Below, in pieces: positions 19,353 to 36,600 of a DNA stretch of 64,000 bases. Within the stretch, counting starts at the first letter, position 1; the number at the start of each line of letters is the position of its first letter. The translations under genes and the position numbers were made by a program. The notes under the pieces were generated by a model. The model worked only from the letters and a program-made list of their open reading frames with translations, ran no database searches and was not told the DNA's origin. The DNA lies in the NCBI GenBank assembly GCA_016936815.1, contig JAFGXD010000047.1, forward strand, positions 2,276 through 66,275, in the 5' to 3' direction. Source of the DNA: Bacteroidales bacterium. Lineage in GTDB: Bacteria > Bacteroidota > Bacteroidia > Bacteroidales > GWF2-38-335.

Positions 19353-20591
19353 TTAGTTTATATACATTTTATATAACTTCTTGTATTCCAGACCATTCTT
19401 TTCAATATAAAGAAAAAATAGTATATTATTCCGGATTTTGATGTTTTCAATATGCACAAAGTCCGGAATTTTTATTTCTTTACCCAATTCCCCTGTTTTA
19501 AGATTAATTTCCATTACTGAAGTAATTCCGTTTTGTTTAAATAGAGAATAGACCTTGCCGGCAATTTCATCAACAAATATTTCCTCCTTCCAATTTTTAT
19601 TTTTATGAAAAGAAATAGGAATTTCATTTATTATATCACCGTTTTCGGTTAAAAATTCCATTTTGCCGTCAACATAATTCAAAATTATTAGCGAATCGCC
19701 CAGTTTAACCAATGGAGCAAAAATTGGATCGAAAAAGCACATCTGTTCAAAACGTAAATCGCTTTCGTTTGGCGAAGGTCCCATAGCCCAAAATCGGTTA
19801 TTAAAAGCTAATCGTTCCAAACCGGCTTCATCTCCAATTACTCTAATTTTCTCATGCTTGCCATCTTCTTTATTCATTGAAAAGTAAATAAGAACCTGAT
19901 TTCTAAGGTAATACTCCTTAAAGTAGAATTTATTTATTGTGGCTTCCAAACAACGTGGAAAAAGTGAATCGAAATCGCTTGTTTCCATTTGGTAAAGCAA
20001 TTGAAGGTTGCTAGAATCGTAAAAAATTTGATAAGCGTACTTTTTTGTAACAAGGTGCAAATTATCAAGACAATCGCGAAAAATCCTTTCTGGTTTCGAT
20101 ACCTCGTATGTTGTTACTGTATCGCCTGAATTTGTCATTAGAACCAAAAGAGGTTGGTTTATTTTTCTGTATTTACAGGCTAACAAGAGAATACTGTCGC
20201 CGTAAAAGTCATAATCCCAAACGTAAAGAGGCTTTTTTTCTATCATATCGTAAATACGATTTTTTGTAATTACCACAGTATCCGACATATAAGTCCTTTT
20301 TTCCAAACTTAGATTAAGGTTTAAATCTTTTTTTTCTTTAATTGTTTTTTGAAAATCGTGGTAGTTTATATGAGTAAATAGGAGAGTGGCAGGTGCATTT
20401 TCAAGGTTAATTTTATAATTCCCATTCTTATCGGAAATAGCTCCTGTCTTTTTTCCAAATACCGAAATATGGATGTCGGAAACCGGCTGCCCTGTTGTTT
20501 TATCGGTTATTTTTCCTGAAACGGTGAAGCTTTGGGCATTAATAATTGCACAAATAAAAAATAAAATCAATATGAATAGTAATCTCTTCAT
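19353..20591 (-). CDS. CarboxypepD_reg-like domain protein (secreted), last gene of the ECF sigma cluster
   Basis: 412 aa with a signal peptide. FTVSGKITDKTTGQPVSDIHISVFGKKTGAISDKNGNYKINL is the carboxypeptidase-regulatory-like fold signature. The remaining ~310 aa are unrecognised. The start lies 2 nt after the anti-sigma stop. Confidence 0.7.
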   Translation of the reverse strand: MKRLLFILILFFICAIINAQSFTVSGKITDKTTGQPVSDIHISVFGKKTGAISDKNGNYKINLENAPATLLFTHINYHDFQKTIKEKKDLNLNLSLEKRTYMSDTVVITKNRIYDMIEKKPLYVWDYDFYGDSILLLACKYRKINQPLLVLMTNSGDTVTTYEVSKPERIFRDCLDNLHLVTKKYAYQIFYDSSNLQLLYQMETSDFDSLFPRCLEATINKFYFKEYYLRNQVLIYFSMNKEDGKHEKIRVIGDEAGLERLAFNNRFWAMGPSPNESDLRFEQMCFFDPIFAPLVKLGDSLIILNYVDGKMEFLTENGDIINEIPISFHKNKNWKEEIFVDEIAGKVYSLFKQNGITSVMEINLKTGELGKEIKIPDFVHIENIKIRNNILFFLYIEKNGLEYKKLYKMYIN

Positions 20592-20593
20592 TT

Positions 20594-21685
20594 TTAATTT
20601 AGTTTCTTTAATACATCACCGGCTCTTTCTGAGTAAAAGCCTTTATTTTTCTCAATTTCCTGAAAGAGTTCTATAGCTTCCTGCATTTCATTATTTTTTA
20701 CAAGCGATAATGCCAAATACCAAGAAGCCTCCTGCTGAAAAGCATTGAATTTGTGTGTTTTAGCTTGAGAAAAGCATTGAATAGCTTTTTTCCATTTACC
20801 CAAGTTAAAATAACATAAACCGCTGTAGAAATCGGCGTTAATATCACCCGGATATTGCGATAATATTATTTTGAGGTCTTTAAGAGTTCCTCTGTAATTG
20901 CTGTTTACGAATTTTAGGAGTGCAGACCCAAGGTAGTCTGAATAAGGAATAAATTCAAGTTTAAAATCTTCAATTGAAGCATTGTTTTTTTCTTCTTCAG
21001 AGCCGAATTGTGCAGGAACGCCATCGAGGTTATGGGTAAATATTTTTATGCCTGAAGTATAAATATTGGAGTAATCTACTGTTTTTAAGTCGTGTATGTA
21101 AACAATTCCGGAATTAATTCTGTTTTTAATTTCAATTTCCAAATTAATTGAATCTTTTTGGTTAGCAATTTTTTCGGGAGCAATAGTTTCAAACTTTTCT
21201 ATTTTTTCAGGTATTTTGTTTTCAGCAACTTGGTTTTCAACAGCTTTTCGGTAAGTAATTTGCTCTGATGGTTCAATTTCTTCAGAATTTTCCAGTTCCA
21301 TTTCTACTGAAATTTGTTCATCCAAAAGTTTTTGGTCGGCTAGCGATAGTTCGTTGTTGCTGGTGGAAATTGCAATTTTTTCATTATTTTCGTCATTAAG
21401 GAGAAAATATGTAGTTATAGCCACCACAATAAAGACAGAAGAAAAGATTAAAATTCGCGAAAGACTTGAAATGCCTGTTTTTCCGGAGAAATGGGGTAAA
21501 TTATTAATAGCACCCGGGTTTTCGGAATAACCTTGCATTGCGGTGCGATTAAGCTCATTATTTTCGATTTTTAGTTCAATTCTATATTTTTCTTCGGGGG
21601 AAAGATTTCCCGAAAGATAATCCTGAATCTCTTTTTTTGTAAGAGGTTCAGTATTGTTGAAAATATTTTTATATTCGTTTTTCAT
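20594..21685 (-). CDS. Membrane-anchored putative anti-sigma factor with C-terminal TPR-like repeats
   Basis: 363 aa. Overlaps the ECF sigma gene by 4 nt (ATGA). Has a single TM (LSRILIFSSVFIVVAITTYFLL) after a ~70-aa cytoplasmic head. C-terminal helical repeats (..GKWKKAIQCFSQA..EASWYLALSLVKNNEMQEAIELFQEI..). Confidence 0.6.
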   Translation of the reverse strand: MKNEYKNIFNNTEPLTKKEIQDYLSGNLSPEEKYRIELKIENNELNRTAMQGYSENPGAINNLPHFSGKTGISSLSRILIFSSVFIVVAITTYFLLNDENNEKIAISTSNNELSLADQKLLDEQISVEMELENSEEIEPSEQITYRKAVENQVAENKIPEKIEKFETIAPEKIANQKDSINLEIEIKNRINSGIVYIHDLKTVDYSNIYTSGIKIFTHNLDGVPAQFGSEEEKNNASIEDFKLEFIPYSDYLGSALLKFVNSNYRGTLKDLKIILSQYPGDINADFYSGLCYFNLGKWKKAIQCFSQAKTHKFNAFQQEASWYLALSLVKNNEMQEAIELFQEIEKNKGFYSERAGDVLKKLN

Positions 21686-22281
21686 GATTCTACGGTCCTT
21701 AATTTTTCGGGTTGGGTTAACAGCAAACGTAAGTTTCTTTTTCCGTTTTGAATATTCGACTTAACTTGTTTTAAATCGAAACTTGTAATTTCTGAAATTT
21801 CAGCATAGCATTTCTGTTGTAAATAGAACAGATTAATACAAATTTTTTGATCGGGTTTAAGTTGCTCGATTGCATGGGGAAGCAATTTCAAGGTATTTTC
21901 ATCAAAAATGTTTTCATTTTCATCGTTGTATCCGTTTTGCATTTCGGGAAAATCGTTGATGAATTTTTCTATTCTTTTTTGTTCCCTGCCTTTTGATCTT
22001 AAGTACATAAGACAGAAGTTTTTAGCTACAGAAAACAGCCAAGTTTTAAAATATTCTATTTCGTTAATTCTTAATTGGGTATAAAGTTTTTCGAATACAT
22101 TGGAGAGAACTTCTTTAGCATCGTTTTCGTTTTTAAGAAAGTTAAGACAAACACCATAAACCAAATGATAGTAACGCCTGTAAATCTCGTTGAAGAACCG
22201 GATTTTTCCGGTCCTTCGGTACGAGATTATTATTTCCTCGTCGGAGAGTTTTTTTATATTATTGCTACCTAAAAGGTTCAT
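21682..22281 (-). CDS. RNA polymerase ECF-type sigma-70 factor
   Basis: 199 aa. Region 2 (..YYHLVYGVCLNFLKNENDAKEVLSNVFEKLY..FKTWLFSVAKNFCLMYLR) and a region 4 HTH (..CYAEISEITSFDLKQVKSNIQNGKRNLR). Confidence 0.85.
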   Translation of the reverse strand: MNLLGSNNIKKLSDEEIIISYRRTGKIRFFNEIYRRYYHLVYGVCLNFLKNENDAKEVLSNVFEKLYTQLRINEIEYFKTWLFSVAKNFCLMYLRSKGREQKRIEKFINDFPEMQNGYNDENENIFDENTLKLLPHAIEQLKPDQKICINLFYLQQKCYAEISEITSFDLKQVKSNIQNGKRNLRLLLTQPEKLRTVES

Positions 22282-22341
22282 GGCGTTTTTAAAAGTTTAA
22301 TGTTAGAAAAAATTCTCTAAACTGCAAAAACTTAAATTTAA

Positions 22342-23115
22342 CTATTCTTCTGTTTCAGGAGTTTCCTCAACTTGTTCTGCCGGTTTTTCACTCTTTTTTG
22401 CAATTTGGTCAGCTCTATAGTCATTATAAAGGTCGAAATAGCTTTTAGTTTCCAGAATAACTACTCCACCGGTAATATCTCCATATTTTGCAGGTATTCC
22501 ACCTGTGTACATAACCAACCTACCAATAGCAGCGCCGGGAATTGTAGTGGAAAAATCTCTTTGTTTTACACCATCAATAATGCAAACAGATTCTCCGGGA
22601 CGCGAACCTCTAATAATTACATCTTTATTGTTTTCGCTAATATTTACCTCAGATGACATTGTTCGAATAGCAGCCCCAATATTCTTATTATCAGGTAGTT
22701 TTACCAGTTGAGAGGAAACTAGACTCATTCTTGTAACATCTTCCGGATCAAGAAGTTTTTCTCTGTGGCCTGTAATAACCGGTCCGTTAAGAACTTCTGT
22801 TGCCACTTCCATTGTAATAGGTTTCATCATTACAACTTTGTCGGCACTTACTAAAATTCCGGTAATTATTTTTTCTCTGTAACCCAAACAAGTTATGCTT
22901 AGATTGTAGGTGCCTGAATTTAAAGGCTTAATAATATAATTACCTTTTTGGTCTGTTATTGAGTATAACTTCTGTCCCCCATAATCTACAACAACAGCAG
23001 CCATTTCAAGAGGTTTTTTATCGGAGCCGAGCAATTGTCCCTTAATTACACCATTTTGTGAAAAGAGACCCTGAGCCGACATCAGGATGATTGAGATAAG
23101 GATTAATTTTTTCAT
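22342..23115 (-). CDS. CarboxypepD_reg + TonB-dependent-receptor Plug domain protein lacking a beta-barrel
   Basis: 257 aa with a signal peptide. GVIKGQLLGSDKKPLEMAAVVV..DQKGNYIIKPLNSGTYNL resembles CarboxypepD_reg. IIRGSRPGESVCIIDGV...GGIPAKYGDITGGVVILETK resembles a Plug. It ends in an acidic tail with no barrel. Confidence 0.7.
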   Translation of the reverse strand: MKKLILISIILMSAQGLFSQNGVIKGQLLGSDKKPLEMAAVVVDYGGQKLYSITDQKGNYIIKPLNSGTYNLSITCLGYREKIITGILVSADKVVMMKPITMEVATEVLNGPVITGHREKLLDPEDVTRMSLVSSQLVKLPDNKNIGAAIRTMSSEVNISENNKDVIIRGSRPGESVCIIDGVKQRDFSTTIPGAAIGRLVMYTGGIPAKYGDITGGVVILETKSYFDLYNDYRADQIAKKSEKPAEQVEETPETEE

Positions 23116-23299: not shown

Positions 23300-24352
23300 T
23301 TATTCAACATCCTTCATTTGTTCGTCGAGTCTTTTTGCATCTTGAATCCTGCTGTGAATGGTGTTTACGTACATTCTATGCATGCTTTTGCCTTCGGTTT
23401 GGTAAGCTTTTTCTGCCCATTTAAGAGCATCGCCTAAGTTGCCTTCAATTTCGTTTGCAAGAGCAAGGTTAAAACAAGCTCTGGCTTTAATTTTTGGGTC
23501 TGAAGATTCGGCATGTTTTTGCCATAATTCCGAGGCTTGTTTCCAGTTGTTTGTTCTAACAAAAGCTTTTGCAGCTTTAAAATCGTCGTTGCCTTTAGTG
23601 TAGTATGAACGGGCAACATTAACCCAAACGGGTGAAATTCTTGCAGCATATAATGTTCCGGCATAGAAGCCTGCATCGTTTGTTGCAGCTCGTTTGTGAG
23701 GAAGTTTAGAAACGGCTCTTTTTGGGTCTTCATCGTCGGCAGAAAAGCCTTTCATATCGCGGAAAGAACTTTGGTCTATTATGGTTTTGGTCTGCGGGTC
23801 GTAAACTCTCCAGCCGCAAGTTACATAAACGTCTAAATGTTCAATAAACAGATTGTAATCAAAGGTTTTGTCGTTAACCTTTCTTGTCTTTTTTTCTACA
23901 GCCGAACGTCTTCTATTATCGGAATCGAAAGTTTCAAGAGTAATTAATGCATCGGCTTTGTTTTCCTTACATATTTTCTCAACTTCCTCCCAATTTAGGG
24001 GTATTGGCCAGGCAGCTGTCCCTGTTCCTCTAAGGTCAATGTTGGTGGGACGCACAACCTCAAATCTGGGACTACTAACAATAACATCAACAAATCCCAG
24101 AATAGTTTTTTCGGAAGCTTCTCTGTCTTGTTGAAAGCCTTCGCCACTTAAGAGTCCTTCAACAATATTACCTGCTTTTTCGCCCTTATCGGGAAGACTC
24201 CTGTTGGCAATAGCAACTTTTTTAATTTTTGAAGGAAGGGTAATTTCGGCGGGGTTAAGAACTTGAACACCAACGCTTGATGTTTTACATGAATTGAAAA
24301 AAAGGATTCCTGTAAGAATCGCAATGCTAATAAGATAACTGTTCGTTTTCAT
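23300..24352 (-). CDS. Lipoprotein with C-terminal TPR-like repeats
   Basis: 350 aa. Lipobox ..ILFFNSC. The C-terminus ..NNWKQASELWQKHAE..ARACFNLALANEIEGNLGDALKWAEKAYQ.. is TPR-like. Confidence 0.65.
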   Translation of the reverse strand: MKTNSYLISIAILTGILFFNSCKTSSVGVQVLNPAEITLPSKIKKVAIANRSLPDKGEKAGNIVEGLLSGEGFQQDREASEKTILGFVDVIVSSPRFEVVRPTNIDLRGTGTAAWPIPLNWEEVEKICKENKADALITLETFDSDNRRRSAVEKKTRKVNDKTFDYNLFIEHLDVYVTCGWRVYDPQTKTIIDQSSFRDMKGFSADDEDPKRAVSKLPHKRAATNDAGFYAGTLYAARISPVWVNVARSYYTKGNDDFKAAKAFVRTNNWKQASELWQKHAESSDPKIKARACFNLALANEIEGNLGDALKWAEKAYQTEGKSMHRMYVNTIHSRIQDAKRLDEQMKDVE

Positions 24353-24456: not shown

Positions 24457-25026
24457 TCAAACTTTATAATCCCTAATATAATCTCTCAAATTTTTTGCAG
24501 GTTCAAGCGTTTTATAAAGTTTAACCTGCATAACTGTTCCCTCGAAAGTAAAATACAGTAATTCAGCTTTTTTTCTTGTTTCTGTTGGCGAAAGATTTGG
24601 TTTCAATTCTTTAAGCAGGTTGGTAAAACGGTCGACAATCTGCTCATTTACAATTACTAATCCCTGCCTAAACATTTCATTAACATCGGCAAGTTCCTGA
24701 ATAAAATTCCCAAAAAATGAACCTCCTTTATAATCGTTTTTGGCAAGTTCTTCAAAAAAATGGTTAAAATAGTTTTCAAGTTTTTCAATTGAATTGACTG
24801 TAGAATCGTTAAAAAACTTGTCGATTTCATTAATTTGTTTTTCAGCAAAATAGTTTATTAATTCAAGCCCAAAGTATTCTTTTGATTCGAAATAAAAATA
24901 GAAAGAGCCTTTGGGTACTTTGCAAATATTTACAATTTCTTGAATTCCTGTGTTGTGAAAGCCTTTAATGTGCATTAATTCTGCACCTTTTTCAAGAAGT
25001 AATTGTTTTGTTTTTTGTTTTTTCAT
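24457..25026 (-). CDS. TetR/AcrR-family transcriptional regulator
   Basis: KQLLLEKGAELMHIKGFHNTGIQEIVNICKVPKGSFYFYFESKE is the TetR N-terminal HTH. The start is placed at ATG 25026 (internal Met of the track ORF), 10 nt downstream of the radical SAM stop. Confidence 0.85.
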   Translation of the reverse strand: MKKQKTKQLLLEKGAELMHIKGFHNTGIQEIVNICKVPKGSFYFYFESKEYFGLELINYFAEKQINEIDKFFNDSTVNSIEKLENYFNHFFEELAKNDYKGGSFFGNFIQELADVNEMFRQGLVIVNEQIVDRFTNLLKELKPNLSPTETRKKAELLYFTFEGTVMQVKLYKTLEPAKNLRDYIRDYKV

Positions 25027-25036
25027 AGTCTTTTTT

Positions 25037-26131
25037 TCAAAATTTGTTTTTAGCAGCCTCTTCAAGCATTCGATAGTGGCACATTAAGACCTCGTCGTTT
25101 TCGAAATCCCATAAATGCAGGCCATTTCCTCTGCACCACTTAAATTCCTTGCAATCTTTACAGATTCCCTTTTTTGCCCATGATTTATCTCTCATTATCT
25201 GAAATCTATTGTTCCAAACATCCATAAAATCATCTTTATAAATATTTCCCTGAACGACCTTATGCGAGTTGTTGGGACAGGCTGATATTGAGCCATCTAC
25301 CAAAACGGAAGCTACATTAATGCCGGCTCTGCAATAACCAATGCCATCGCGTACTGAAGCTTCGTAATCGCCCAGAAAACCATCGCAGCCGTAACTTGCA
25401 TGAATTCTTCCTTCATTTCTGGTATTTTTAAGAAACTCCATTAAATCAAGCATTTGTTCTTTACTAATAAGCAATTCCGGATTATCTTTTGCTCTGCCAA
25501 TAGGATCAATAGAGAATATTCTCCATTTTTTTACACCTGTTTCAATAAGTAATTCTTTAATGTCGTTTAATTCGGCAAAGTTTTTTGGGTTTGCACAAGT
25601 AACAACATCATATACAATATCTTTTTGGTTTACAAGTAGTTTAATTGCCGAAAGAGCTTTGTTAAAACCGTCTTTATGTCCTCTAAGCCAGTTATGACTT
25701 TCTTCAAGTCCGTCTAAACTAACAGTTACAGAACGTAATCCTGATTTCATAAGGCTGTAGAGGCGTTCTTTTGTTAATGCAATTCCGTTGGTTACAAAGC
25801 CCCAAGGGTAACCCTGACGGTATAGTTCAATGCCAACTTGTTCCAAATCTTGCCTTACTAACGGCTCACCGCCGGTAATTACAATCATTACTTTATTAGG
25901 ATTGTAATGTTCTCTAACCTGATTTGTAATTTTAAGGAAATCTTCTCCCGGCATATCTTTAACGCCCACTTCTTTATGGCAATCGGAACCACAATGTCTG
26001 CAGTTTATATTACATCGAAGAGTACATTCCCAAAAGAAGTAATTGAGTTCATGCAATTGAGCCTGAGTTTTTACATACTTTGAAAAAACATTAAGAGCAA
26101 GACGCTTTTTGAATGAAGGTTTAATCTTCAT
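25037..26131 (-). CDS. Radical SAM enzyme with C-terminal SPASM-type Cys-rich domain (peptide-maturase class)
   Basis: 364 aa. Contains CNINCRHC (CxxxCxxC), GGEPL, and C-terminal ..GYCRAG..SISACPNN..GICKDCKEFKWCRGNG. The start overlaps the stop of the upstream small ORF (ATGA). Confidence 0.9.
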   Translation of the reverse strand: MKIKPSFKKRLALNVFSKYVKTQAQLHELNYFFWECTLRCNINCRHCGSDCHKEVGVKDMPGEDFLKITNQVREHYNPNKVMIVITGGEPLVRQDLEQVGIELYRQGYPWGFVTNGIALTKERLYSLMKSGLRSVTVSLDGLEESHNWLRGHKDGFNKALSAIKLLVNQKDIVYDVVTCANPKNFAELNDIKELLIETGVKKWRIFSIDPIGRAKDNPELLISKEQMLDLMEFLKNTRNEGRIHASYGCDGFLGDYEASVRDGIGYCRAGINVASVLVDGSISACPNNSHKVVQGNIYKDDFMDVWNNRFQIMRDKSWAKKGICKDCKEFKWCRGNGLHLWDFENDEVLMCHYRMLEEAAKNKF

Positions 26132-26328
26132 AATGAAGAACTATTCGTTTCAGTATTAATTGTAAATAATTTGTTGTTATTCGAAAGATTTTTTTTGTAA
26201 TCGGCAGTTGGTCCGCCATATTTTGTTCGGTGTCTAATTCTGCAAGAAACAAGAGTAGAGGAAATTAGAATAGAAGCAGCCGTAAAAATTAGAATTGATG
26301 AAAAAATTTTTGTAAATCTATTTTTCAT
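26128..26328 (-). CDS. Small lipoprotein-like precursor P3 (66 aa) with TKYGGPTADY motif
   Basis: MKNRFTKIFSSILIFTAASILISSTLVSC signal/lipobox, then RIRHRTKYGGPTADYKK. ATGA overlaps on both sides. Confidence 0.7.
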   Translation of the reverse strand: MKNRFTKIFSSILIFTAASILISSTLVSCRIRHRTKYGGPTADYKKNLSNNNKLFTINTETNSSSL

Positions 26329-26582
26329 TTATCATCCTCCATTTCTTTGTAATCTTCTCTAACTGCACCATATTTTTTCGGCATTGGCTGAGGATCGTAA
26401 TTTACAGGAACCCCGTACTTAGTAACAGGTTCATTAATTACGTTATTATTTTCATTATTTGGTTCTTCAGTAGTTTTTTGTTTTCCTTTGCATGAAGAAA
26501 AGGAAATTGTTCCAAGAAAGCTAAGTCCTGCAAGCAGCAAAACGTAAAAACCTGATTTAAATCTTATAATTTTTTTACTCAT
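26325..26582 (-). CDS. Small lipoprotein-like precursor P2 (85 aa) with TKYGVPVNY and KKYGAVREDY motifs
   Basis: MSKKIIRFKSGFYVLLLAGLSFLGTISFSSC signal/lipobox, an Asn/Glu-rich spacer, then two copies of the motif. Confidence 0.7.
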   Translation of the reverse strand: MSKKIIRFKSGFYVLLLAGLSFLGTISFSSCKGKQKTTEEPNNENNNVINEPVTKYGVPVNYDPQPMPKKYGAVREDYKEMEDDK

Positions 26583-26874
26583 TTTCGGGGGTTGTTTTTA
26601 TTATTTCAATTTTTTCAAAATTAGGAGGACAACCATATGCATTAGCTGGTGTATCATTAATTAGTTTTTCTTTTATGATTGTATTATTAATAGAATCGTT
26701 TTGTTTTTTTGTTGAATCTACAACAAATAGTAATGAGTCATATTTAGTACTTCCGGTTAATTCGGTTGTGTTTTTTTTTGTAAAGCAACCTGAAAAGAAA
26801 ATAAATCCAATAGCCAATAGCACTATTCTTTGCAATAAAAATTTGGTTTTATAGTAATTCAATTTCAAATCCAT
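26575..26874 (-). CDS. Small lipoprotein-like precursor P1 (100 aa from internal ATG) with NAYGCPPNF motif
   Basis: MDLKLNYYKTKFLLQRIVLLAIGFIFFSGC signal/lipobox. Later TKYDS and NAYGCPPNF. The track ORF extends to 27000, but the extension is hydrophobic AT-rich read-through of the promoter region. Confidence 0.6.
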   Translation of the reverse strand: MDLKLNYYKTKFLLQRIVLLAIGFIFFSGCFTKKNTTELTGSTKYDSLLFVVDSTKKQNDSINNTIIKEKLINDTPANAYGCPPNFEKIEIIKTTPENE

Positions 26875-26894
26875 TTTAATTATGCTGTTTAAAA

Positions 26895-26902
26895 CAAAAA
26901 TA
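26895..26902 (-). promoter_or_regulatory. Candidate -7 box (TATTTTTG) for the precursor/radical SAM operon
   Basis: TAnnTTTG match on the minus strand, 20 nt upstream of ATG 26874. Confidence 0.35.
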
Positions 26903-27118
26903 TGAAAAAATATTATGGCTTCACTTATTTTATAAACAAATTTGAGTCCAAATAAAAAATATAGGTAAAAAGTATGTATTCCCTGTGAAGAAAACCACAT
27001 TTCTTTTAATTGTTAGTCGAGATTTATTGCTTTTAATTCCTCGTTTACCAATTATATTTTATAAGTTTGAAATTAAATTTAAGAACGTACCATAAAAGTT
27101 TAAAAAAGAATTTTTACA

Positions 27119-27529
27119 ATGACCTCAAAAGTTATTTATACAGGAGATTTAAGAACCAATTTGCAACACATTCAATCCGGAGACACAATAATAACCGATG
27201 CCCCAACCGACAATAAAGGCAAAGGAGAAGCATTCTCTCCAACCGATTTGATGGCCACTTCATTGGCTTCTTGCATGCTAACAATAATTGGAATAAACGC
27301 CATGGAAAGAGGTTATTCAATAGATGGTGCAAGTGCTGAAGTTACCAAAATAATGAATTCGGAGCCCAGAAGAGTAGGAGAAATTAAGGTAATATTTAAT
27401 TTTCCGGGAAATTATTCAGAAATAGATAAGAAAAGGATTGAGGCAAGTGCATACTCTTGTCCGGTAAGTAAAAGCTTACATCCCGAATTAAAACAAACAA
27501 TTGAATTCAATTATGGAACCAACAATTAA
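27119..27529 (+). CDS. OsmC/Ohr-family peroxiredoxin-like protein
   Basis: 136 aa. ..GKGEAFSPTDLMATSLASCMLT.. and ..YSCPVSKSL.. carry the two conserved OsmC cysteines. Confidence 0.8.
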   Translation: MTSKVIYTGDLRTNLQHIQSGDTIITDAPTDNKGKGEAFSPTDLMATSLASCMLTIIGINAMERGYSIDGASAEVTKIMNSEPRRVGEIKVIFNFPGNYSEIDKKRIEASAYSCPVSKSLHPELKQTIEFNYGTNN

Positions 27530-27893
27530 ACCCGGATTAACCGGAAAGATGGAACATATAGTCAGGCCACAAGATTCTGCATCTAACTACAGATCGGGAA
27601 CTTTGGAGGTTTTTGCCACCCCGGCCATGATTGCCTTAATGGAACAAACAGCAATGAATTCTGTTCAGGACTTGCTTCCCAAAGGCTTTTCTACCGTTGG
27701 TGTTGAAATAAGAACCACACATTTAAAAGCCACAGCCATTGGTAAAAAAGTAATTTGCGAATCAAATCTTGTTATTGTATCCGGAAAAGAACTGGAATTT
27801 GAAATTTCTGCTTTCGATGAGGTAAATCTTATCGGAAAGGCTTATCATAAGAGAGTAATTATTGATGTTAAACGTTTTTTGTCTCGTATTTAA
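27513..27893 (+). CDS. Hotdog-fold thioesterase-like protein
   Basis: ~126 aa from ATG 27513. The ..TLEVFATPAMIALMEQTA.. pattern fits small hotdog thioesterases. Overlaps the osmC-like stop. Confidence 0.6.
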   Translation: MEPTIKPGLTGKMEHIVRPQDSASNYRSGTLEVFATPAMIALMEQTAMNSVQDLLPKGFSTVGVEIRTTHLKATAIGKKVICESNLVIVSGKELEFEISAFDEVNLIGKAYHKRVIIDVKRFLSRI

Positions 27894-28135: not shown

Positions 28136-31100
28136 ATGAGAACGAGATTTACTTTTATCCTATCTGCATTCATGCTCGTTTCATTATTTTCCCTTTCCTT
28201 ACAAGCTAAAATAGGAAAAGGATATGATGTAAGCTATGAGCAAACAAGAGCAGATGAATTTACCTTGAATTTTCAACTTCAAGATTATCAATTAATTGAA
28301 ATTGAAAAAAATGGTGTTGTTTATTCAACCCTACAATTTGCCGGAAACCTGACTACCAACAAGCAAGGATGGGCCGAATTGCCTTATCTGCATGCAGGTG
28401 TTCAGTTGTCACCCAACAAAAATGTTAGCCTGGTGGTTAACTATTCAAATTTTGTTGAAATTGACGTTCCCCACCAAATGCTTCCAAGCAGAGGAACAAT
28501 TTACAGAAATCAGGATCCAAACTCAATTCCTTATGAAATTGATCCTGAATCTATTAACGACAATTGGTATCCAAAAGAACTAGCATTAGGTTCAGAGCCA
28601 TTTATTGTAAGAGATGTTAGAGGTGAAAACATTTATGTTTATCCTTTCCAGTACAATGCCGTTCAGAATAAGTTAAGAATTTATACTGATATTACTGTAA
28701 CAGTTGTTGAAAACAACGATGAGCCAATTAACCCAATAACTAACCTTAACACAGTGGTAAACAGAGAAATGCACGACATTTACACATCTATGTTTGTTAA
28801 CTACAATCAAAATCCTTATCGTTGGACAAACGAAATTGGTCAATATGGCGAAATGCTTGTTATTTATACTTCAAGAGATGCAACAGCTATTCAGCCATGG
28901 ATTACCTGGAAGAAACAAAAAGGTGTTAAAGTTCACGAATTGCAGGTTGCTACCAATACAAACGTGAAATCAAATATTGCTACGGAATATGCTGCGAATC
29001 CAAATATTTTGTACGTTTTAGTTGTTGGCGATTGGGCAGATATTAAATCAGACCTTGGAACTTATGCCAATGCCCCAACCGACCCAATGATGGGTTGCGT
29101 AGTTGGAGGCGATAACTATTACGACATTATGATTGGTCGTTTTTCTGCTAGCAGTGCAAACCACGTAACAATTCAGGGAAATAAGGTTATTAATTATGAA
29201 AAAAATCCTGATTTAGCAGGAACATGGTATTCCAATGGTTTGGGAATTGGTTCAAATGATGGCTCAGGAATTGGAGATGATGGTGAAATTGACCATGTAC
29301 ATATTGATGTAATTAAGGAAGAAAAATTACTCCCATATAACTACACAACTGTAAATGAGGCTTACGGAAGTCCAACAGCAACAACAGTTGCAAATTACAT
29401 TAATGCAGGTGTTGGCGTAATAAACTATTGTGGACATGGTGGACACGATTATTGGGTAACCTCAAACTACTCTACAACAAATGCAAATGCTTCTACAAAT
29501 GGTTCAAAACTACCATTTGTTTTTTCAGTAGCTTGTATTGTAGGTGAATTTCATACAGGATCAGATTGTTTAGCTGAAGCTTTCTTAAGAAAAGACGGAG
29601 GTGGAGCTATTGCTGTTTGGATGTCAACTATTAACCAACCATGGACACCACCTATGAGGGGTCAGGATTATGCCAACGATATTTTAACCGAAGGGTTTAA
29701 TTACAGTACAGGCTCCGGAAATGGAACTTCCACAACTTATGGAAAAAACATGTATGGTGCAATTACCTTTAATGCCGGTGCCTTAATGATTGCCGAATCT
29801 ACTGCCACAGACGATTGGGACACATATAAAACATGGTCGATTTTTGGAGATCCAAACACACAGGTTAGAACCGAAACACCTAAAGCATTAACCATTACAA
29901 ACCCAAGTGTTACTCCCGGTTCATATACAACACAGATAACAGTTGCAGGTGCTCCTTTTGCAAATGCTCTTGTTTCTATTTATCAGGCAGGTACAGGAGA
30001 CGACCAGCCTTATTCGGGTCTTACTGATGCTTCAGGTAACGTAACAATTTCACATCCTTACGCAGGAACAGTTAAGTTAACAGTAACAGGTTACAATCTT
30101 GCTACTTACAGTCAAGACCATGTTATTGCTGTTGCCGAACCTCCGGTTTGCGATTTTACTGCTACTCCAACAACATTAACTGCCGGAAGTTATGTGAATT
30201 TCACCGATATTTCTACAAATTATCCTTCTTCTTGGACTTGGACATTAACAGGTGGAACTCCAAGCTCATCCACAACACAAAATCCAACGGTACAATATAA
30301 CACCCCCGGTGTTTATTCAGTTACTCTAGCATGTGCCAACGGAGCCGGAAGCGATACTGAAACAAAAACAAACTATATTACTGTTAATGCCGTTACCACA
30401 CCTCCAGTTGCCGATTTTGTTGCCAGTGCCACAACCATAAACATTGGTGAATCGGTTGATTTTACTGATCTTTCAACAAATTTACCAACATCTTGGGCAT
30501 GGACTTTCGACGGAGCTGCTCCCGGAACAAGCACAACTCAAAACCCAACAGGTATTACATACAATACCGCAGGCACATATACAGTAACATTAACTGCAAC
30601 AAACGGATTTGGATCTGATACCGAAACAAAAACAGCCTATATTACTGTAAGTGCTCCCGAACCTTGTGAGGCCAGTTCTTTAAGTACAGCTTATGAGTAT
30701 ATAAGTAATGTAACAATTGGTACAATAAACAATACCTCTGCCGCTTCAAATTATACTGATTATACTGCTATGTCAACCGATGTTGAAGCAGGAGTTGGTT
30801 CTCCAATAACCGTTTCAATATTAAATCCATACTCATCAGATCAGGTTCTAATTTGGGTTGACTGGAACAGAAATGGTGTGCTTACAGATACCGATGAGGC
30901 AGTTTTTGTTTCTGCAACCGGTACAGGACCTTACTCAACTACAATTACTCCTCCGGCTTGGGTAACACCAGGGCCTTGTACAATGCGTATTAGATTGCAC
31001 GATTCGGGTTCCGGACCAAACCTAACTCCTTGTGGAACTTCTTCTTATGGTGAGGTTGAAGATTATACTCTAACAGTTATTTCTTCAACTCCTGCTCCTC

Positions 31101-33550
31101 CTGTTGCTGATTTTTCAGGAACTCCAACTACAGTGGTTGTTGGTGGTTCTGTAAATTTCACCGATTTATCAACAGGAATACCAACCTCATGGGCATGGAC
31201 TTTTACAGGAGGTTCACCGGCATCTTCTACAACTCAAAACCCAACAGGCATTGTTTACAATACAGCCGGAACCTATGCAGTTCAACTTACTGTTACAAAC
31301 GCTGAAGGCACAGATAGTGAAACTAAAGCAGGTTATATTACTGTTATTGAAGGCGGTTCTGGTTTTAGTTTAGATTTTGAAGCTTGTGTAGATTATTCAT
31401 CAGATTTTACACCATGGACAGTAGTAGCAAATAATACAGGCGCTACTTACCAAAGTTCCGATTGCGATTTTCCGGGCGAAAGTACTGCTTTTGGATATAT
31501 GGCTTTTAATCCTGCTGATGCTAGTTTTACATTGGCTAGTACACATGGAGGTGACAGATGCGGAATGGCAATTTGTCCTTCAGATGCCAGTCAGGCCGAC
31601 AATTGGCTGATTTCAGAACAACTAACTATGGGTACAGGTTCTTCAATTACCTTCTGGGTATTATCTCCAAAACCGGGAACATGGGGAAATGAATCTTATA
31701 ACGTATTGGTTTCTACAACCACTAATAGTTTAGCTTCTTTTACCGCAATTGCAACTAACGAGGAAGCTCCTGCAACATGGACAGAAAAAACTTATGATTT
31801 ATCTGCTTACGATGGACAAACAATTTATGTAGCAATTCAGCATAATTCTACTGATATGTTTATGTTCTTTATTGATGACATATCTATTAATACAACCTTT
31901 GGTCCTTCAGCTCCAACTGCTGAATTCTCAGGTACTCCTACAACAATTTGCGTTGGTAACACTGTTAATTTCACTGATTTATCATCTGGTGCAGATAGTT
32001 ATTCTTGGTCATTTAGTGGTGGAACGCCTTCTACTTCTACCTCTGCTAACCCAACAATTACCTATAATACACCCGGAACTTACGATGTTTCTCTAACTGT
32101 TACCAATACAGAAGGTAGCGATACAGAAACAAAAGTTGGTTATGTTATTGTTGGAGCTGCTCCTACACTTTCAACTTCAGTTACAAATGTTAATTGTTAT
32201 GGCGACGCTTCCGGTGCTATTGATTTAACAGTAACAGGTGGAACATCTCCATTTACTTACGCATGGACACCTTCCGGTTCTACTCAAAATCTTACAGGAA
32301 TTGCAGCAGGAACATATTCTGTTGTTGTAAACGATGCAGCGGGCTGTACAGCAACTACATCTGCAAGTGTTAGTCAACCTGCAACTGCTGTTAGTGTTTC
32401 TGCAACTTCTACTCAGGCTACATGTGGTAATGCAGACGGATCTGCTACTGCAACGGGTGCAGGCGGAGTTAGTCCTTACACATATTCATGGTCAAGTGGA
32501 GGAAATACAGCTACAGAATCGAATCTTGGTGCAGGAACTTATGCAGTTATGGTACAAGATGCAAACGGATGTACTGCTTCTACAACCGCAACAGTTACTG
32601 AACTTGGTGCACCTACCGTAAACGTTTCTATTACCAATGCAAGTTGTAATGGAGTTTGCGACGGAAGTGCATTAGCTGTAGTTTCAGGAGGAACATCTCC
32701 TTACACTTACACTTGGAGTCCAACCGGATACACCAACGATGGAATGGGCCATTATTCAGATCTTTGTGCAGGAGCTTATGGACTAACCGTTGTAGATGAT
32801 GCCGGCTGTCAGGTTACAACAAGTTTCGATATTACTGAACCTTCTGCAATTAATGTTAGTGTTTCTGTTACTGATGCAACATGTTTTGGCCTTGCTGACG
32901 GAACTGCAACCGCAGTTGTAACAGGCGGAACCGGCTCTTACACATATTTGTGGAATAACGGAGCTACAACAGCAACCATTACCGGCCTTACCAGCGGAGT
33001 TTATTCTGTTATTGTAACAGACGCTAACGATTGCGAAGGAACAGGTTCAGGAACTGTTAATCAACCGACTATGATTACACTTACAGGAATAACTCCGGTT
33101 CACGAAGATTATTCGGGAGCATGCAATGGAACCGCAACAGCAAGTGTTACAGGCGGCGTTCCTCCTTATGTGTATAATTGGAGCAATGGACAAACAACAA
33201 ATCCGGCTACAGGCTTATGCTCAGGAGATTATACTGTTACTGTTACCGATGCAAATGGCTGTTATGTTACAGGAACTGTTACAATTACTTTCATTAACAA
33301 TATTGATGAAAACAATAACGAATCCTTTAATGTTTATCCGAACCCAACAAGCGGACTTGTAAATATTTCTTGTGAAAACTCAGACCTTACTTCTGTTTTG
33401 GTTCGAGATATAACAGGCCGTTTAGTTGAAACAGTTAATACAACACAGACAATAACCACAATTGACATGAAAAAATATGACAAAGGTGTTTATCTGTTTG
33501 AATTATTATTCGAAAAATCTTCGTCTACCATTAGGGTAGTTGTTGAATAA
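28136..33550 (+). CDS. Gingipain-like peptidase C25 with 4 PKD, GEVED-like, choice-of-anchor-like, 5 SprB-type repeats and T9SS C-terminal domain
   Basis: 1804 aa with a signal peptide. Catalytic-dyad contexts INYCGHGGHDYW (His) and PFVFSVACIVGEF (Cys) resemble gingipain motifs. PKD units read PPVADF..VNFTDLS..W.W.F.GG.P..S..QNPT..Y...G.Y.V.L...N..G.D.E.K..YI.V. Also has SSYGEVEDYTL and Cys-Gly-rich SprB-like repeats. The C-terminus FNVYPNPTSGLVNI..GVYLFELLF is a T9SS CTD. Confidence 0.9.
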   Translation: MRTRFTFILSAFMLVSLFSLSLQAKIGKGYDVSYEQTRADEFTLNFQLQDYQLIEIEKNGVVYSTLQFAGNLTTNKQGWAELPYLHAGVQLSPNKNVSLVVNYSNFVEIDVPHQMLPSRGTIYRNQDPNSIPYEIDPESINDNWYPKELALGSEPFIVRDVRGENIYVYPFQYNAVQNKLRIYTDITVTVVENNDEPINPITNLNTVVNREMHDIYTSMFVNYNQNPYRWTNEIGQYGEMLVIYTSRDATAIQPWITWKKQKGVKVHELQVATNTNVKSNIATEYAANPNILYVLVVGDWADIKSDLGTYANAPTDPMMGCVVGGDNYYDIMIGRFSASSANHVTIQGNKVINYEKNPDLAGTWYSNGLGIGSNDGSGIGDDGEIDHVHIDVIKEEKLLPYNYTTVNEAYGSPTATTVANYINAGVGVINYCGHGGHDYWVTSNYSTTNANASTNGSKLPFVFSVACIVGEFHTGSDCLAEAFLRKDGGGAIAVWMSTINQPWTPPMRGQDYANDILTEGFNYSTGSGNGTSTTYGKNMYGAITFNAGALMIAESTATDDWDTYKTWSIFGDPNTQVRTETPKALTITNPSVTPGSYTTQITVAGAPFANALVSIYQAGTGDDQPYSGLTDASGNVTISHPYAGTVKLTVTGYNLATYSQDHVIAVAEPPVCDFTATPTTLTAGSYVNFTDISTNYPSSWTWTLTGGTPSSSTTQNPTVQYNTPGVYSVTLACANGAGSDTETKTNYITVNAVTTPPVADFVASATTINIGESVDFTDLSTNLPTSWAWTFDGAAPGTSTTQNPTGITYNTAGTYTVTLTATNGFGSDTETKTAYITVSAPEPCEASSLSTAYEYISNVTIGTINNTSAASNYTDYTAMSTDVEAGVGSPITVSILNPYSSDQVLIWVDWNRNGVLTDTDEAVFVSATGTGPYSTTITPPAWVTPGPCTMRIRLHDSGSGPNLTPCGTSSYGEVEDYTLTVISSTPAPPVADFSGTPTTVVVGGSVNFTDLSTGIPTSWAWTFTGGSPASSTTQNPTGIVYNTAGTYAVQLTVTNAEGTDSETKAGYITVIEGGSGFSLDFEACVDYSSDFTPWTVVANNTGATYQSSDCDFPGESTAFGYMAFNPADASFTLASTHGGDRCGMAICPSDASQADNWLISEQLTMGTGSSITFWVLSPKPGTWGNESYNVLVSTTTNSLASFTAIATNEEAPATWTEKTYDLSAYDGQTIYVAIQHNSTDMFMFFIDDISINTTFGPSAPTAEFSGTPTTICVGNTVNFTDLSSGADSYSWSFSGGTPSTSTSANPTITYNTPGTYDVSLTVTNTEGSDTETKVGYVIVGAAPTLSTSVTNVNCYGDASGAIDLTVTGGTSPFTYAWTPSGSTQNLTGIAAGTYSVVVNDAAGCTATTSASVSQPATAVSVSATSTQATCGNADGSATATGAGGVSPYTYSWSSGGNTATESNLGAGTYAVMVQDANGCTASTTATVTELGAPTVNVSITNASCNGVCDGSALAVVSGGTSPYTYTWSPTGYTNDGMGHYSDLCAGAYGLTVVDDAGCQVTTSFDITEPSAINVSVSVTDATCFGLADGTATAVVTGGTGSYTYLWNNGATTATITGLTSGVYSVIVTDANDCEGTGSGTVNQPTMITLTGITPVHEDYSGACNGTATASVTGGVPPYVYNWSNGQTTNPATGLCSGDYTVTVTDANGCYVTGTVTITFINNIDENNNESFNVYPNPTSGLVNISCENSDLTSVLVRDITGRLVETVNTTQTITTIDMKKYDKGVYLFELLFEKSSSTIRVVVE
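31091..32152 (+). repeat. 1062-bp PKD / choice-of-anchor-like / PKD cassette shared with the next gene (copy 1)
   Basis: 354 codons, PAPPVADFSGTP...KVGYVIV. Aligns colinearly and apparently without gaps to 35779-36840. One example: [25 protein letters not shown] vs [25 protein letters not shown]. Another: [12 protein letters not shown] in both. Confidence 0.8.
32156..33297 (+). repeat. Five tandem SprB-type coding repeats (~75 aa each)
   Basis: Repeated C.G..(D/N)G.A...V.GG..PY.Y.W..G.......L..G.Y.V.V.D..GC units. Confidence 0.7.
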
Positions 33551-33639: not shown

Positions 33640-36600
33640 ATGAAAAAAAGCCTTAACCTGTTCTTACTGCTTTTTATAGCATTAACAATTAATGCACAGC
33701 AGACAATAACATTTCCTTTTTCCGGAACAAAATCCGGTTTGGAAATAAAAGCATCTACTCCGGATAAGATGAGAATTGAAGCTTCAATTTCCGAATTAAA
33801 GGCAAGCTCTTCTCAAATTCTTAATTCTGAAATGTTTACAAATCTTGAATCTTCGGGATTAATTAGAAATGACGTAACAGGCAAGCCGGAACTTCCTGTT
33901 TTTAGTCGCTTAATTGAAGTTCCTTACCAAGCCGGAATTGAAGTAAACATTATTAGCTATTCCGAAGAGGTAATAAATTTGAATGAATTCGAATTGCCGG
34001 TTATTGCCCCAAATCAACCTTCATATACAAAAAGTTCAGATCCATCTACTCATGTTTTCGTAATTGATCAGGAATTCTATAATACCAATGAGTTTTCTGA
34101 TGGTCCCGGCATTAAAACTGAAATAGAAGGAATTATGAGGGGTACAAGAATTGGTAGAATTGAAATATGCCCATTCAGTTATAACCCTGTGGAAAATATT
34201 TTGATTGTTTACCACAATATTGAATTTGAAGTAAGATTTATTAATGCCGACCATAGTCTTACCGATGCTATGAAAAGCAAATACTATTCTCCTGAATTTG
34301 AACCATCATACGATTTGCTTCTAAATTATAAAGCACCAACTGCAAAAGATGGATTCAGCAATTTTACAAAACCAATAAAATATGTAATTGTTGCCAACAG
34401 AGCATTTGAAACCACATTACAACCTTTTGTTGAATGGAAAACAATTTCGGGATATAATGTAATTGAAGCTTATACCGATATAATTGGAACAACAAACACA
34501 GCAATAAAAGCCTATTTAGAAGGATTATACGATGCCGGTAGCACCTCCGATCCTGCTCCCCTTTATGTCTTAATAATTGGAGACCATAGCGGAACATATA
34601 GCATTCCTGCTTTTGCCTCAACAAATACAGGCTCGGGTGGTTCTTCTCATATTACTGATGTTTATTTTGGTTGTTATGATGGCACCTCCGATAATATTCC
34701 AGATTTATATCTTGGAAGAATTTCAGCCAACAGCACAACGGAATTAGCAAATGCATTAAATAAAATTGTTCCCTACGAAAAATATGAATATACAGATGGA
34801 GCTCACCTCGACAAAGCTATGCTTATTGCCGGTTGCGACGTTTCTTATGCTCATTCTCACGGTGATGCAACAATTTTATATGGAATAAATAATTATTTTA
34901 ACACTTCTCATGATTTGTCGAATATTTATGCATATTACTATAACCATTCTACTGGTCCATATTTTGTTATGAGTTCTAACTCTACAGGTGCTGCTGCCGA
35001 TATTAAATCGAAAATCACTCAAGGTCTTGGATTTGCTAATTATACTGCTCATTGCGACCACGATGGTTGGGCCGACCCAAATGTTAGCAGAGCCGATATT
35101 GCCAATTTCAACAACTTAAATAAATATCCGTTTATGATTGGTAACTGTTGCCTTAGTTTCCAATTCGACCAGAGCGATGCTTTTGGAGAAATGTTGCTTT
35201 ATGCTGCCAACGAGGGTGCAATTGGGTATATTGGAACTTCAAACTCTTCTTATTGGTACGAGGATGTTTATTGGGGAATTGGATTAACTACCTTAACTGT
35301 TAACGCAACAAACTTTGCATCACATACTTATGCAAATACCGGAATTGGAATGTATGATGCACTTTATCACGAAAATGGAGAAGCTTTTTCAAACTGGTAT
35401 TTTACTGGAAGTCAGATGAATTTTAAAGGAAATACTGCTGTTCAATCCAGTACTTCAGGATACAAAAAATATTATTGGGAAATATACCATTGCGTTGGTG
35501 ATCCATCAATAATGCCTTATATGCATACTCCTACTGCCCTTTCTTTAACATTTACAACTCCAGATGCCGGAGCCACTTCTTTAACTGTTAACACAGAAGC
35601 CTATACTTATGTTGCTATTTCCCAAAATGGTGTTTTGTTAGATGCAAAATGGTCGGGTTCGGGAACTAGTGTAAACCTTGCTTTTACCGCTTTAGGTAGT
35701 AGTTCAGTTACTATTGTTGGAACAAAACAAAACAGAGCTCCATATATTAACGAAAATATTACTCCGGGAACAGGAATCCCTGCCGCTCCGGTTGCTAATT
35801 TTACTGCCTCTTCAACCAATATAACAGTTGGTGGTTCTGTAAACTTCACCGATATTTCGGCTAATGTGCCGACTTCATGGGCATGGACATTTACAGGTGG
35901 AACGCCTTCTTCATCAACATTGCAAAATCCAACAAATATTGTTTATAATGCAGCCGGAACTTACACGGTTCAATTAATTGCAACAAATGCACAAGGTTCC
36001 GATACTGAAACAAAAACCGGTTATATTACTGTAATTGAAGGTCCCGATGGATTTAGTCTTGATTTTGAGGCTTGCACAGATTATTCTTCAAATTTTGCTC
36101 CTTGGACTGTAATTGCTAATAATGCGGCAGCTACTTACCAGAGTTCCGATTGCGATTTTACCGGCGAGGGAACAACTTTTGGCTATATGGCATTTAACCC
36201 TTCCGATGCAGGTTTTTCTCTTGCAAGTGCTCATGGTGGCGTAAGATGTGGAATGGCAATTTGCCCTGCAGATGCTACTCAGGCCGACAATTGGTTAATC
36301 TCCGAACAACTTACTTTAGGAACTGCATCGTCTCTAAAATTTTGGGTTCTTTCTCCAAAACCCGGCTCATGGGGTAATGAGACATTTAATGTATTGGTAT
36401 CTACTACTAACAGCAGCATGGGTTCGTTTACTGCAATAGCCAGCAATCAGGAAGCTCCTGCAACATGGACACAAAAAACTTATGACCTTTCTGCTTATAA
36501 CGGACAAGATATTTATGTGGCAATTCAGCATGTTTCCACAGATATGTTTATGTTCTTTATTGATGATATTGAAGTAATTACAACTTCCGGTGTTGCAATG

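Follow-up and report, generated by a model that had tools for sequence, protein, structure and literature searches.

We analyzed a 64,000-nt stretch of DNA (the window) from a Bacteroidales bacterium (contig JAFGXD010000047.1) and observed that four stacked genes on its minus strand encode a radical S-adenosylmethionine (SAM)/SPASM enzyme of the TIGR04133 family together with three small lipoprotein-type precursors, P1, P2 and P3, which share a motif around Tyr-Gly. With a probability of roughly 55%, the locus is best explained as a two-part TIGR04133 maturation cassette in a short-precursor variant, whose enzyme would modify the Tyr-Gly site of the precursors before their export, most likely by excising a tyramine equivalent. 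This reading starts from three observations, namely the family membership of the enzyme, the coupling of the genes and the conserved pairing of the enzyme with a lipoprotein carrying the motif. It is very probable that the enzyme and P1–P3 form an enzyme–substrate cassette, and the Tyr-Gly site is probably the target of the enzyme, while the assignment of the chemistry to tyramine excision is tentative and drawn by analogy. The genes are arranged in the order P1 (26575..26874, 99 aa, from its open reading frame (ORF) and sequence reading), P2 (26325..26582, 85 aa, with two copies of the motif), P3 (26128..26328, 66 aa) and the enzyme (25037..26131, 364 aa), all on the (-) strand, and each stop codon overlaps the following start codon: the overlaps are ATGAGTAA for P1/P2, ATGA for P2/P3 and again ATGA for P3/enzyme. 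A TetR-family regulator (24457..25026, (-), with matches to PF00440 and PF16925) begins with its ATG at 25026, 10 nt past the stop of the enzyme. All coordinates, strands, overlaps and this spacing had been read from the letters alone in an original prediction, and they hold on the sequence. The ORF listing gives longer starts (TTG at 25065 for TetR, an alternative ATG at 27000 for P1); we preferred the starts of the original prediction because a normal basic n-region, hydrophobic core and lipobox result from them.

The enzyme matches the NCBIfam model TIGR04133 (rSAM_w_lipo, a hypothetical equivalog) with 541.3 bits at a cutoff of 425, covering model positions 1–349 of 350. PF04055 (Radical_SAM) is matched with 65.6 bits (cutoff 29.5) and PF13186 (SPASM) with 39.1 bits (cutoff 21.5). 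These three profile matches confirm the radical SAM and SPASM assignment as well as the family, which the original prediction had named. The CX3CX2C radical SAM cluster motif (C40, C44 and C47; 25991..26014, (-)) and the seven cysteines of the SPASM region (C249, C267, C285, C324, C327, C333 and C351; 25079..25387, (-)) are invariant in 40 homologues, and the stretches quoted earlier, CNINCRHC (C40–C47), SISACPNN and CKDCKEFKWCRGNG, are all present. In the AlphaFold2 model of the enzyme (pLDDT 91.5) we found a single N-terminal helix (residues 7–26) and no RiPP-recognition domain (RRE; RiPP, a peptide made on the ribosome and then modified post-translationally). As a model, it resembles peptide-modifying SPASM and twitch enzymes, the nearest solved folds being SkfB, SuiB, PqqE and ChlB with TM scores of ~0.6–0.68; by sequence comparison with solved structures no close relative of the enzyme was found. 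The family comprises more than 7,400 homologue clusters (90% identity) at E ≤ 1e-30, many of which bear the JGI name 'radical SAM enzyme (rSAM/lipoprotein system)', and it ranges over Bacteroides, Parabacteroides, Prevotellaceae, Muribaculaceae, Tannerella, marine and sediment Bacteroidota, Fibrobacter and Treponema. In the literature searched, TIGR04133 is not mentioned and no function is described for it, in line with the earlier statement that none was known. Below the family cutoff we also observed TIGR04133-like enzymes of 258–380 bits, some of them fused behind a second radical SAM/SPASM domain (P0304 and P0312, 736–854 aa) and some with a 200-aa C-terminal extension. The upstream partner of one such sub-threshold relative (P0285, L100 721-3178) is a 256-aa non-lipoprotein with the C-terminal end YYGAPLAN.

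In each of P1, P2 and P3 a basic N-terminus and a hydrophobic core precede a lipobox Cys, and all three are predicted to bear a lipoprotein (type II) signal peptide. The sequence contains the lipoboxes FFSGC, SFSSC and LVSC as well as all the motifs named in the original prediction. For comparison we used the syntenic locus L082, an 88%-identical relative, and L001, a 76% relative. In P1, the lipobox Cys30 (FFSG-C; 26785..26787, (-)) is invariant when aligned with L082 and L001, and the motif A-Y-G-C-P-P-N-F (26617..26640, (-)) matches the strict pattern YG.P.{2,3}[YF] and corresponds to AYGCPAH in L082. The lipobox Cys31 of P2 (FSS-C; 26490..26492, (-)) is likewise invariant in the precursor alignment. 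Its first motif, K-Y-G-V-P-V-N-Y (26397..26420, (-)), is the same in L082 and reads KYGIPVNF in L001, while the second, K-Y-G-A-V-R-E-D-Y (26349..26375, (-)), is a relaxed copy with V instead of P at +3 and reads KYGAPREDY in L082. P3 carries its lipobox at Cys29 (LVS-C; 26242..26244, (-); from the sequence and the ortholog alignment), and its motif K-Y-G-G-P-T-A-D-Y (26197..26223, (-)), with a Tyr at +8, begins 7 residues past this Cys. The X-Y-G sites of the three precursors therefore read K-Y-G three times and A-Y-G once. RHRTKYGGPTADYKK is an example of a peptide with the candidate target site that could serve as a synthetic substrate.

Among the 49,691 six-frame residues of the window the strict pattern has 4 matches, 3 of them within P1–P3, a clustering that is not due to chance. 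The fourth match, YGIPTAGY (45968-45991, (-)), is located in a 422-aa ORF (45071-46339) and is probably a chance occurrence unconnected to the cassette. Compared with L082 we obtained dN/dS values of 0.11 for P1, 0.08 for P2, 0.38 for P3 and 0.04 for the enzyme, all of them approximate as dS is near saturation. Because these values are low, the small ORFs are judged to be real, constrained genes under purifying selection. The P2 ortholog in L082 is 81% identical, and the P3 orthologs of six loci have nothing invariant but the lipobox Cys29 and K-Y-G-G-P. A sequence search with P3 against 5.8 billion proteins returned only the self-match, and NCBIfam and Pfam scans of P1–P3 gave nothing but noise (the PG1828 lipoprotein family at E 0.02 and a frog-skin peptide signal). 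The divergence of the short precursors is too great for sequence search, and we therefore compared gene neighbourhoods.

The sample consisted of 80 genome loci, mostly from Bacteroidota and one from Fibrobacter, plus a Treponema plasmid locus (L081), of which 79 were usable. An adjacent upstream lipoprotein with a signal peptidase II (SPII) signal was detected automatically in 72 of the 79, and in 71 of them YG is present in the mature part. Inspection added L006, L007, L009 (with an unusual TRC lipobox), L017 (at an assembly gap) and L073 (Fibrobacter, with a 346-aa lipoprotein as partner), so that about 76 of the 79 usable loci have between one and seven upstream lipoproteins. Only in L055 and L061, both from uncultured Bacteroidales/Bacteroidia metagenome-assembled genomes (MAGs), is the adjacent YG lipoprotein missing; the partner may be encoded elsewhere there, or the assemblies may be unreliable at that spot. 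A repetitive Ser/Cys/Pro-rich ORF lies upstream of the enzyme in both. Across all 81 loci the upstream same-strand lipoprotein gene or genes are the sole conserved neighbour, and the coupling is tight: from the stop of the last lipoprotein to the start of the enzyme the median distance is ~1.5 nt, 47 of 72 gaps are ≤10 nt and roughly half of the gene pairs overlap.

We collected 228 YG sites from 154 lipoproteins, with Y-G defining the alignment. V is found at +2 in 121 and P at +3 in 131 of the 228 sites, and Y or F is favoured at +7, giving the logo T-[K/E/M]-Y-G-V-P-x-[A/D/N]-x-[Y/F]. The strict pattern occurs 6.4 times per 1,000 aa in the partner lipoproteins and 0.07 times in the other ORFs of the same loci, which is a difference of ~88-fold. 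The original prediction had asked whether small ORFs with the motif always accompany the enzyme, and this co-occurrence is borne out, with Y-G-x-P..[YF] in nearly all loci. One MAG (JAFGWG01; contigs L019 and L065) contains two TIGR04133 cassettes, one with short multi-motif precursors and the other with a 124-aa partner in which Tyr-Gly stands right after the lipobox Cys (C-Y-G-A-P). The C-Y-G arrangement is also present in the Treponema partner of L081.

This neighbourhood speaks to the alternative that the locus is a classical secreted RiPP system, making a bacteriocin or signal, in which the lipoprotein-like N-terminus would be a leader and the modified core would be released. Such a system would agree with the diverged tandem precursor copies and repeated cores per peptide, with the fast divergence of the precursors, seen in P3, for which no homologues were detected by sequence search, and with the tight coupling to a single maturase. 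However, no leader protease, peptidase-containing (PCAT) or other ABC exporter, immunity gene or RRE is conserved among the neighbours of the 81 loci, all precursors have the lipobox Cys without exception, and the Bacteroidales partner is a folded 150-aa domain lipoprotein (TIGR04134) and no peptide. The enzymes of the family, moreover, are 50–60% identical over the whole order, unlike bacteriocin maturases. We regard a secreted RiPP as improbable.

TIGR04134 had been named in the original prediction as the partner family. It exists and is a lipoprotein partner in Bacteroidales, but P1–P3 are not members, as none of them matches the profile at E ≤ 1 (model cutoff 39.8 bits), whereas long forms from L012, L016 and L054 score 85–105 bits. 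Two forms of partner can be distinguished. The long form (~150 aa) occurs in Bacteroidales loci and usually as one copy per locus; it has a conserved LLxLLGFSxC signal region, D or E after the lipobox Cys, the motif ~9 residues past this Cys with Glu or Met before the Tyr, and a beta-sandwich resembling CarboxypepD_reg (weak Pfam matches). The short form (41–130 aa) occurs in environmental Bacteroidota, including the window; its signal region is less conserved, the residue after the Cys is K, R or S, the motif lies a median of 39 residues past the Cys and is mostly preceded by Lys, no domain is present, and a locus may hold up to seven copies, often with several motif copies per peptide. P1–P3 share with the TIGR04134 partners the SPII signal and the lipobox Cys followed by a Y-G-x-P site. 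They differ in lacking the beta-sandwich of ~110 aa (the DIDGxxNG domain) and in being present as three copies. Where the TIGR04134 partners have D/E following the lipobox Cys, P1–P3 have K/R, and their Tyr is preceded by Lys instead of Glu or Met. The cassette as a whole corresponds to the TIGR04133/TIGR04134 arrangement, with a full-length enzyme above the cutoff, a coupled upstream SPII lipoprotein carrying x-Y-G-x-P-x-A-x-[YF], and two components. Judged from their sequences, P1–P3 are short, domain-less, multi-copy variant partners of the known, uncharacterised TIGR04133 cassette, and at this level of comparison the short variant shows that it is the motif, and not the domain, that travels with the enzyme.

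In order to place the enzyme we compared it with other radical SAM/SPASM families. Its best NCBIfam match outside its own family is TIGR04103 (nif11-class peptide radical SAM maturase 3; 124.7 bits, full length), and other scores are 100 bits for TIGR03913, 100 bits for mycofactocin and 84 bits for PqqE. Among the outsiders found by tblastn and plasmid search, an Agathobacter enzyme reaches 143 bits and GDL-motif maturases reach 117–122, while all others stay at ≤105. The Agathobacter and GDL-type enzymes themselves match TIGR04103 and TIGR03913 first and TIGR04133 third (175–185 bits). A profile built from 40 TIGR04133 sequences gives 125–170 bits for enzymes of the TIGR04103/TIGR03913 type and ≤96 bits for representatives of TIGR04053, MftC, NirJ, PqqE, ACGX and other families. 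A search from the Aureibacter enzyme for a bona fide PlpX/TIGR04103 member yielded only GDL-type proteins among the top 120.

The peptides next to these nearest relatives carry the same site. We found TPYGVAI, AMYGVAI and PMYGVGL in Burkholderia DUF1843/DUF1842 proteins beside maturases, MLYGGAM and KPYGVAI in neighbour peptides of Azospirillum, QPYGAGI in a neighbour peptide of Aureibacter, and MPYGVAI, VLYGVGI, PPYGVPI and PLYGVVI in three more GDL-type loci. The JGI name of TIGR03913, 'Y-X(10)_GDL-associated radical SAM protein', also marks this Tyr as conserved. The GDL/DUF1843 peptides with their TIGR03913 enzymes, which together with the TIGR04103-like enzymes are nearest by profile, resemble the window in having tandem precursors with [P/L/M]-Y-G-V-[P/A]-I. 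They differ in that the precursors lack a signal peptide, being helical peptides of the cytoplasm or fusions with DUF1842, and the enzymes are 470–520 aa long with a C-terminal extension that TIGR04133 lacks. In the literature searched, DUF1843, DUF1842, TIGR03913 and TIGR04103 led to unrelated papers or to proteins called unknown, and the function of a DUF1842-DUF1843 protein is still given as unknown in a 2024 structural paper (PMC10994174).

In several of these loci (L084 2653-3366, L085 560-2125, L086 1528-2243 and L097-L099), DUF1843 or DUF1842-DUF1843 proteins lie beside TIGR03913 maturases, usually as 2–3 tandem paralogues and with [P/L/M]-Y-G-V-[P/A]-I ~10 residues before GDL. A methyltransferase or a RimK-type ligase is also present at some TIGR03913 loci. 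On an Agathobacter rectalis plasmid (L083 3213-3419), an unannotated ORF with the end GPVMYGTGVRM is located directly upstream of a TIGR04103-like gene and a major facilitator superfamily (MFS) transporter; we regard it as a candidate precursor of the x-Y-G type from a gut Firmicute.

The recurrence of the motif bears on another alternative, in which the lipoproteins are partners and not substrates, the enzyme has a small molecule or a different protein as its target, and Y-G-x-P serves binding or sorting. It draws on the scores of the tetrapyrrole-modifying SPASM enzymes of the AhbD, NirJ and TIGR04053 type, which are nearly as high as those of the peptide maturases. Yet the shortest partners (41–66 aa) conserve nothing beyond the signal peptide, the Cys and the motif, which leaves no functional domain, and the motif recurs in non-lipoprotein peptides beside GDL-type and TIGR04103-like enzymes and is therefore tied to the enzyme and not to lipoprotein sorting. 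We consider a mere partner role very improbable.

The chemistry that we tentatively propose for the Tyr-Gly site is taken from the spliceases. These enzymes, e.g. PlpX, are radical SAM/SPASM proteins that cut a tyramine equivalent (C8H9NO, 135.06 Da) out of Nif11-type and other precursors at X-Y-G, and the product, an alpha-keto-beta-amino amide, is a protease-inhibitor pharmacophore (PMC11414181; PMC11626197; PMC9811515). PlpXY, for which cutting of PlpA3 has been seen experimentally, has LYG and MYG as natural sites, and splice tags derived from PlpA3 carry PIRPLYGLPI (PMC10533398). According to a review, YG-rich precursors next to PlpX-like enzymes turned up in 189 genera when genomes were mined (PMC10849128). 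The window resembles the splicease systems (PlpXY/PlpA, RhaX/RhaA and RcsX) in combining a radical SAM enzyme that has a SPASM domain with an invariant Tyr-Gly preceded by a variable residue. L-Y-G-L-P-I of the PlpA3 tag and K-Y-G-V-P-V of P2 are alike, and both spliceotide precursors and P1–P3 may have several sites per precursor and tandem precursor genes. The splicease systems differ in using a Y protein or a Nif11/NHLP leader, in the place of which the window has a lipoprotein signal peptide, and the product in the window would stay lipid-anchored, unlike spliceotides. In the literature searched, which excluded Scott et al. 2022 and Morinaka et al. 2018, we found no link of spliceases to lipoproteins, TIGR04133 or DUF1843, nor of radical SAM enzymes and lipoproteins to tyramine. 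Scott et al. 2022 (Chem) reportedly predicted 939 splicease systems. The original prediction had suggested a modification at an aromatic-Gly-x-Pro core; the motif is indeed conserved, and the link to x-Y-G sites of the splicease type, which that prediction had not seen, is added here.

Several points weigh against tyramine excision before export. The TIGR04103 score of the enzyme (124.7 bits) is far under the cutoff of 725, so that membership fails, and its lead over the SPASM families AhbD, NirJ and TIGR04053 amounts to a few bits in NCBIfam. In a neighbour-joining tree, the x-Y-G clade is sister to TIGR04133 with a weak bootstrap value of 48/100. That TIGR04103 corresponds to the characterised spliceases is something we infer from its name (Nif11-class, SPASM) and the substrate motif, and the excision chemistry itself would be carried over to TIGR04133 members by analogy. 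Known spliceases require a Y protein or a leader helix (PMC11414181); at our loci we found no Y-protein equivalent and, among the 81 neighbourhoods, no PqqD-like conserved neighbour, in addition to the missing RRE in the enzyme model. A few of the sites read Y-A or Y-M rather than Y-G, and modification ahead of Sec export is assumed.

These points leave room for the same cassette and motif with another chemistry, namely a Tyr cross-link (a ring-to-C-beta cyclophane to the +2 Val/Pro region, or a bond with the aromatic at +7), conversion of the Tyr to a tethered redox cofactor in the manner of PqqE and MftC, or epimerisation. PqqE, MftC and the cross-linking maturases are detectable relatives by the scores given above, the nearest solved folds are those of the cross-linkers SkfB, SuiB, PqqE and ChlB, and the similarity to TIGR04103 is only marginally above that to other SPASM families. 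The frequent second aromatic at +6 or +7 would also suit a Tyr–aromatic link, but more than half of the YG sites have no aromatic at +7. The cross-linking families, moreover, fall below the x-Y-G clade on the TIGR04133 profile, and an invariant Y-G with a variable preceding residue, common to the two nearest enzyme families, is the signature of a splice site. We hold another chemistry to be rather unlikely. PqqE and MftC resemble our enzyme as SPASM proteins that act on a conserved Tyr of a small ribosomal peptide and are detectable homologues; they require PqqD or MftB as chaperone (RRE), recognise other motifs and are followed by further tailoring genes, none of which is present in the window cassette.

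If the preferred reading of a tyramine-excising cassette is followed, P1, P2 and P3 would be co-produced with the enzyme from the overlapping genes, and the enzyme would recognise [K/E/M/A]-Y-G-x-P-x-x-x-[Y/F] on the unexported cytoplasmic precursor and act on the invariant Tyr. Radical SAM enzymes require SAM and a low-potential reductant. The modification is thus expected to be cytoplasmic and to precede Sec export and processing by Lgt and Lsp. The tyramine equivalent would be cut out at X-Y-G and the carbonyl of X joined to the former Tyr carbonyl, giving an alpha-keto-beta-amino amide. Such a ketoamide would be an electrophilic protease-inhibitor warhead displaying the side chain of X, which is Lys in precursors P2 and P3 (a Lys-type P1 ketoamide) and Ala in precursor P1. 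After export through Sec, the modified precursor would receive its lipid at the lipobox Cys and be cut by signal peptidase II, ending as a lipid-anchored peptide whose modified site sits on a polar tether. More speculatively, the signal-peptide helix might stand in for the activating leader or Y helix of the spliceases, an idea that fits because the signal region of the long forms is unusually conserved.

The best precedent for modification followed by export are the anaerobic sulfatase-maturating enzymes (anSMEs; AtsB and ChuR), cytoplasmic radical SAM/SPASM enzymes without an RRE that recognise a short linear C/S-x-P/A-x-R motif near the N-terminus. Their targets are then exported by Sec, and many of them are lipoproteins in Bacteroides. 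The anSMEs differ in motif, target residue and chemistry (formylglycine) and are distant relatives; their family, TIGR03942, is not among the top 25 NCBIfam matches of our enzyme.

The TetR gene had been proposed in the original prediction as a dedicated regulator, a claim that does not stand. It follows the enzyme only in the window and in L082; L001 has a MATE-like gene on the opposite strand at this place and no TetR gene, and TetR was not found as a conserved neighbour among the 81 loci. TetR is not part of the conserved system, although it may regulate the operon in the lineage of the window. Upstream of P1 we found no credible TetR operator palindrome and no exact match to the Bacteroidota -33/-7 promoter consensus; a sigma-70 promoter scan is inapplicable to Bacteroidota, and the window and L082 do not align informatively in their upstream regions.

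Downstream of TetR lie a gene for a DUF6340 lipoprotein (350 aa) and, beyond it, genes for a CarboxypepD_reg protein with a partial Plug domain, an extracytoplasmic function (ECF) sigma factor (21682-22281), a tetratricopeptide repeat (TPR) protein and a second CarboxypepD_reg protein, within the tracts 19353-23115 (-) and 23300-24352 (-). This set from DUF6340 to CarboxypepD_reg is syntenic in L082. On the other side, two overlapping genes divergent from P1 encode an OsmC-like protein (27119-27529, (+)) and a FlK-type thioesterase (27501-27893, (+)). They are followed by two C25 gingipain-type cysteine peptidases of 1,804 aa (28136-33550, (+)) and 1,227 aa (33640-37323, (+)), both with Propeptide_C25, Peptidase_C25, PKD, Cleaved_Adhesin and SprB repeats and a type IX secretion system (T9SS) C-terminal sorting domain. 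The first C25 gene begins 1.3 kb from the P1 start and is divergent from it, a proximity that would be intriguing if P2 and P3 became Lys-type ketoamide inhibitors. A functional link between the cassette and the C25 peptidases was nevertheless rejected; the adjacency is not conserved in L082.

Taken together, the maturase-plus-lipoprotein interpretation of the original prediction is supported, with two corrections that concern TIGR04134 membership and TetR. The uncharacterised TIGR04133 cassette was already known; new here are the short-precursor variant and a specific chemical hypothesis. TIGR04133 is a very common family that has stood in the database for more than 10 years with no function assigned. 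The short precursors of the window consist of a signal peptide, a lipobox and one nine-residue motif and thereby pinpoint the likely target site, and the link to the x-Y-G maturases gives one sharp prediction, a mass change of about -135.07 Da at K-Y-G. It is possible, though doubtful, that TIGR04133 enzymes in general are lipoprotein spliceases for which the signal peptide replaces the RiPP leader, and that the envelopes of Bacteroidota display lipid-anchored alpha-keto-beta-amino-acid warheads. If this were true, backbone beta-amino-acid ketoamides would be routine in envelope lipoproteins of a dominant gut phylum, including most gut Bacteroidales, and a lipoprotein signal peptide would take the role of leader towards a radical SAM maturase. 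Which proteases are inhibited would then be set by the residue that precedes the Tyr (Lys, Glu or Met), and the short tandem peptides of the window would be minimal natural tethered inhibitors.

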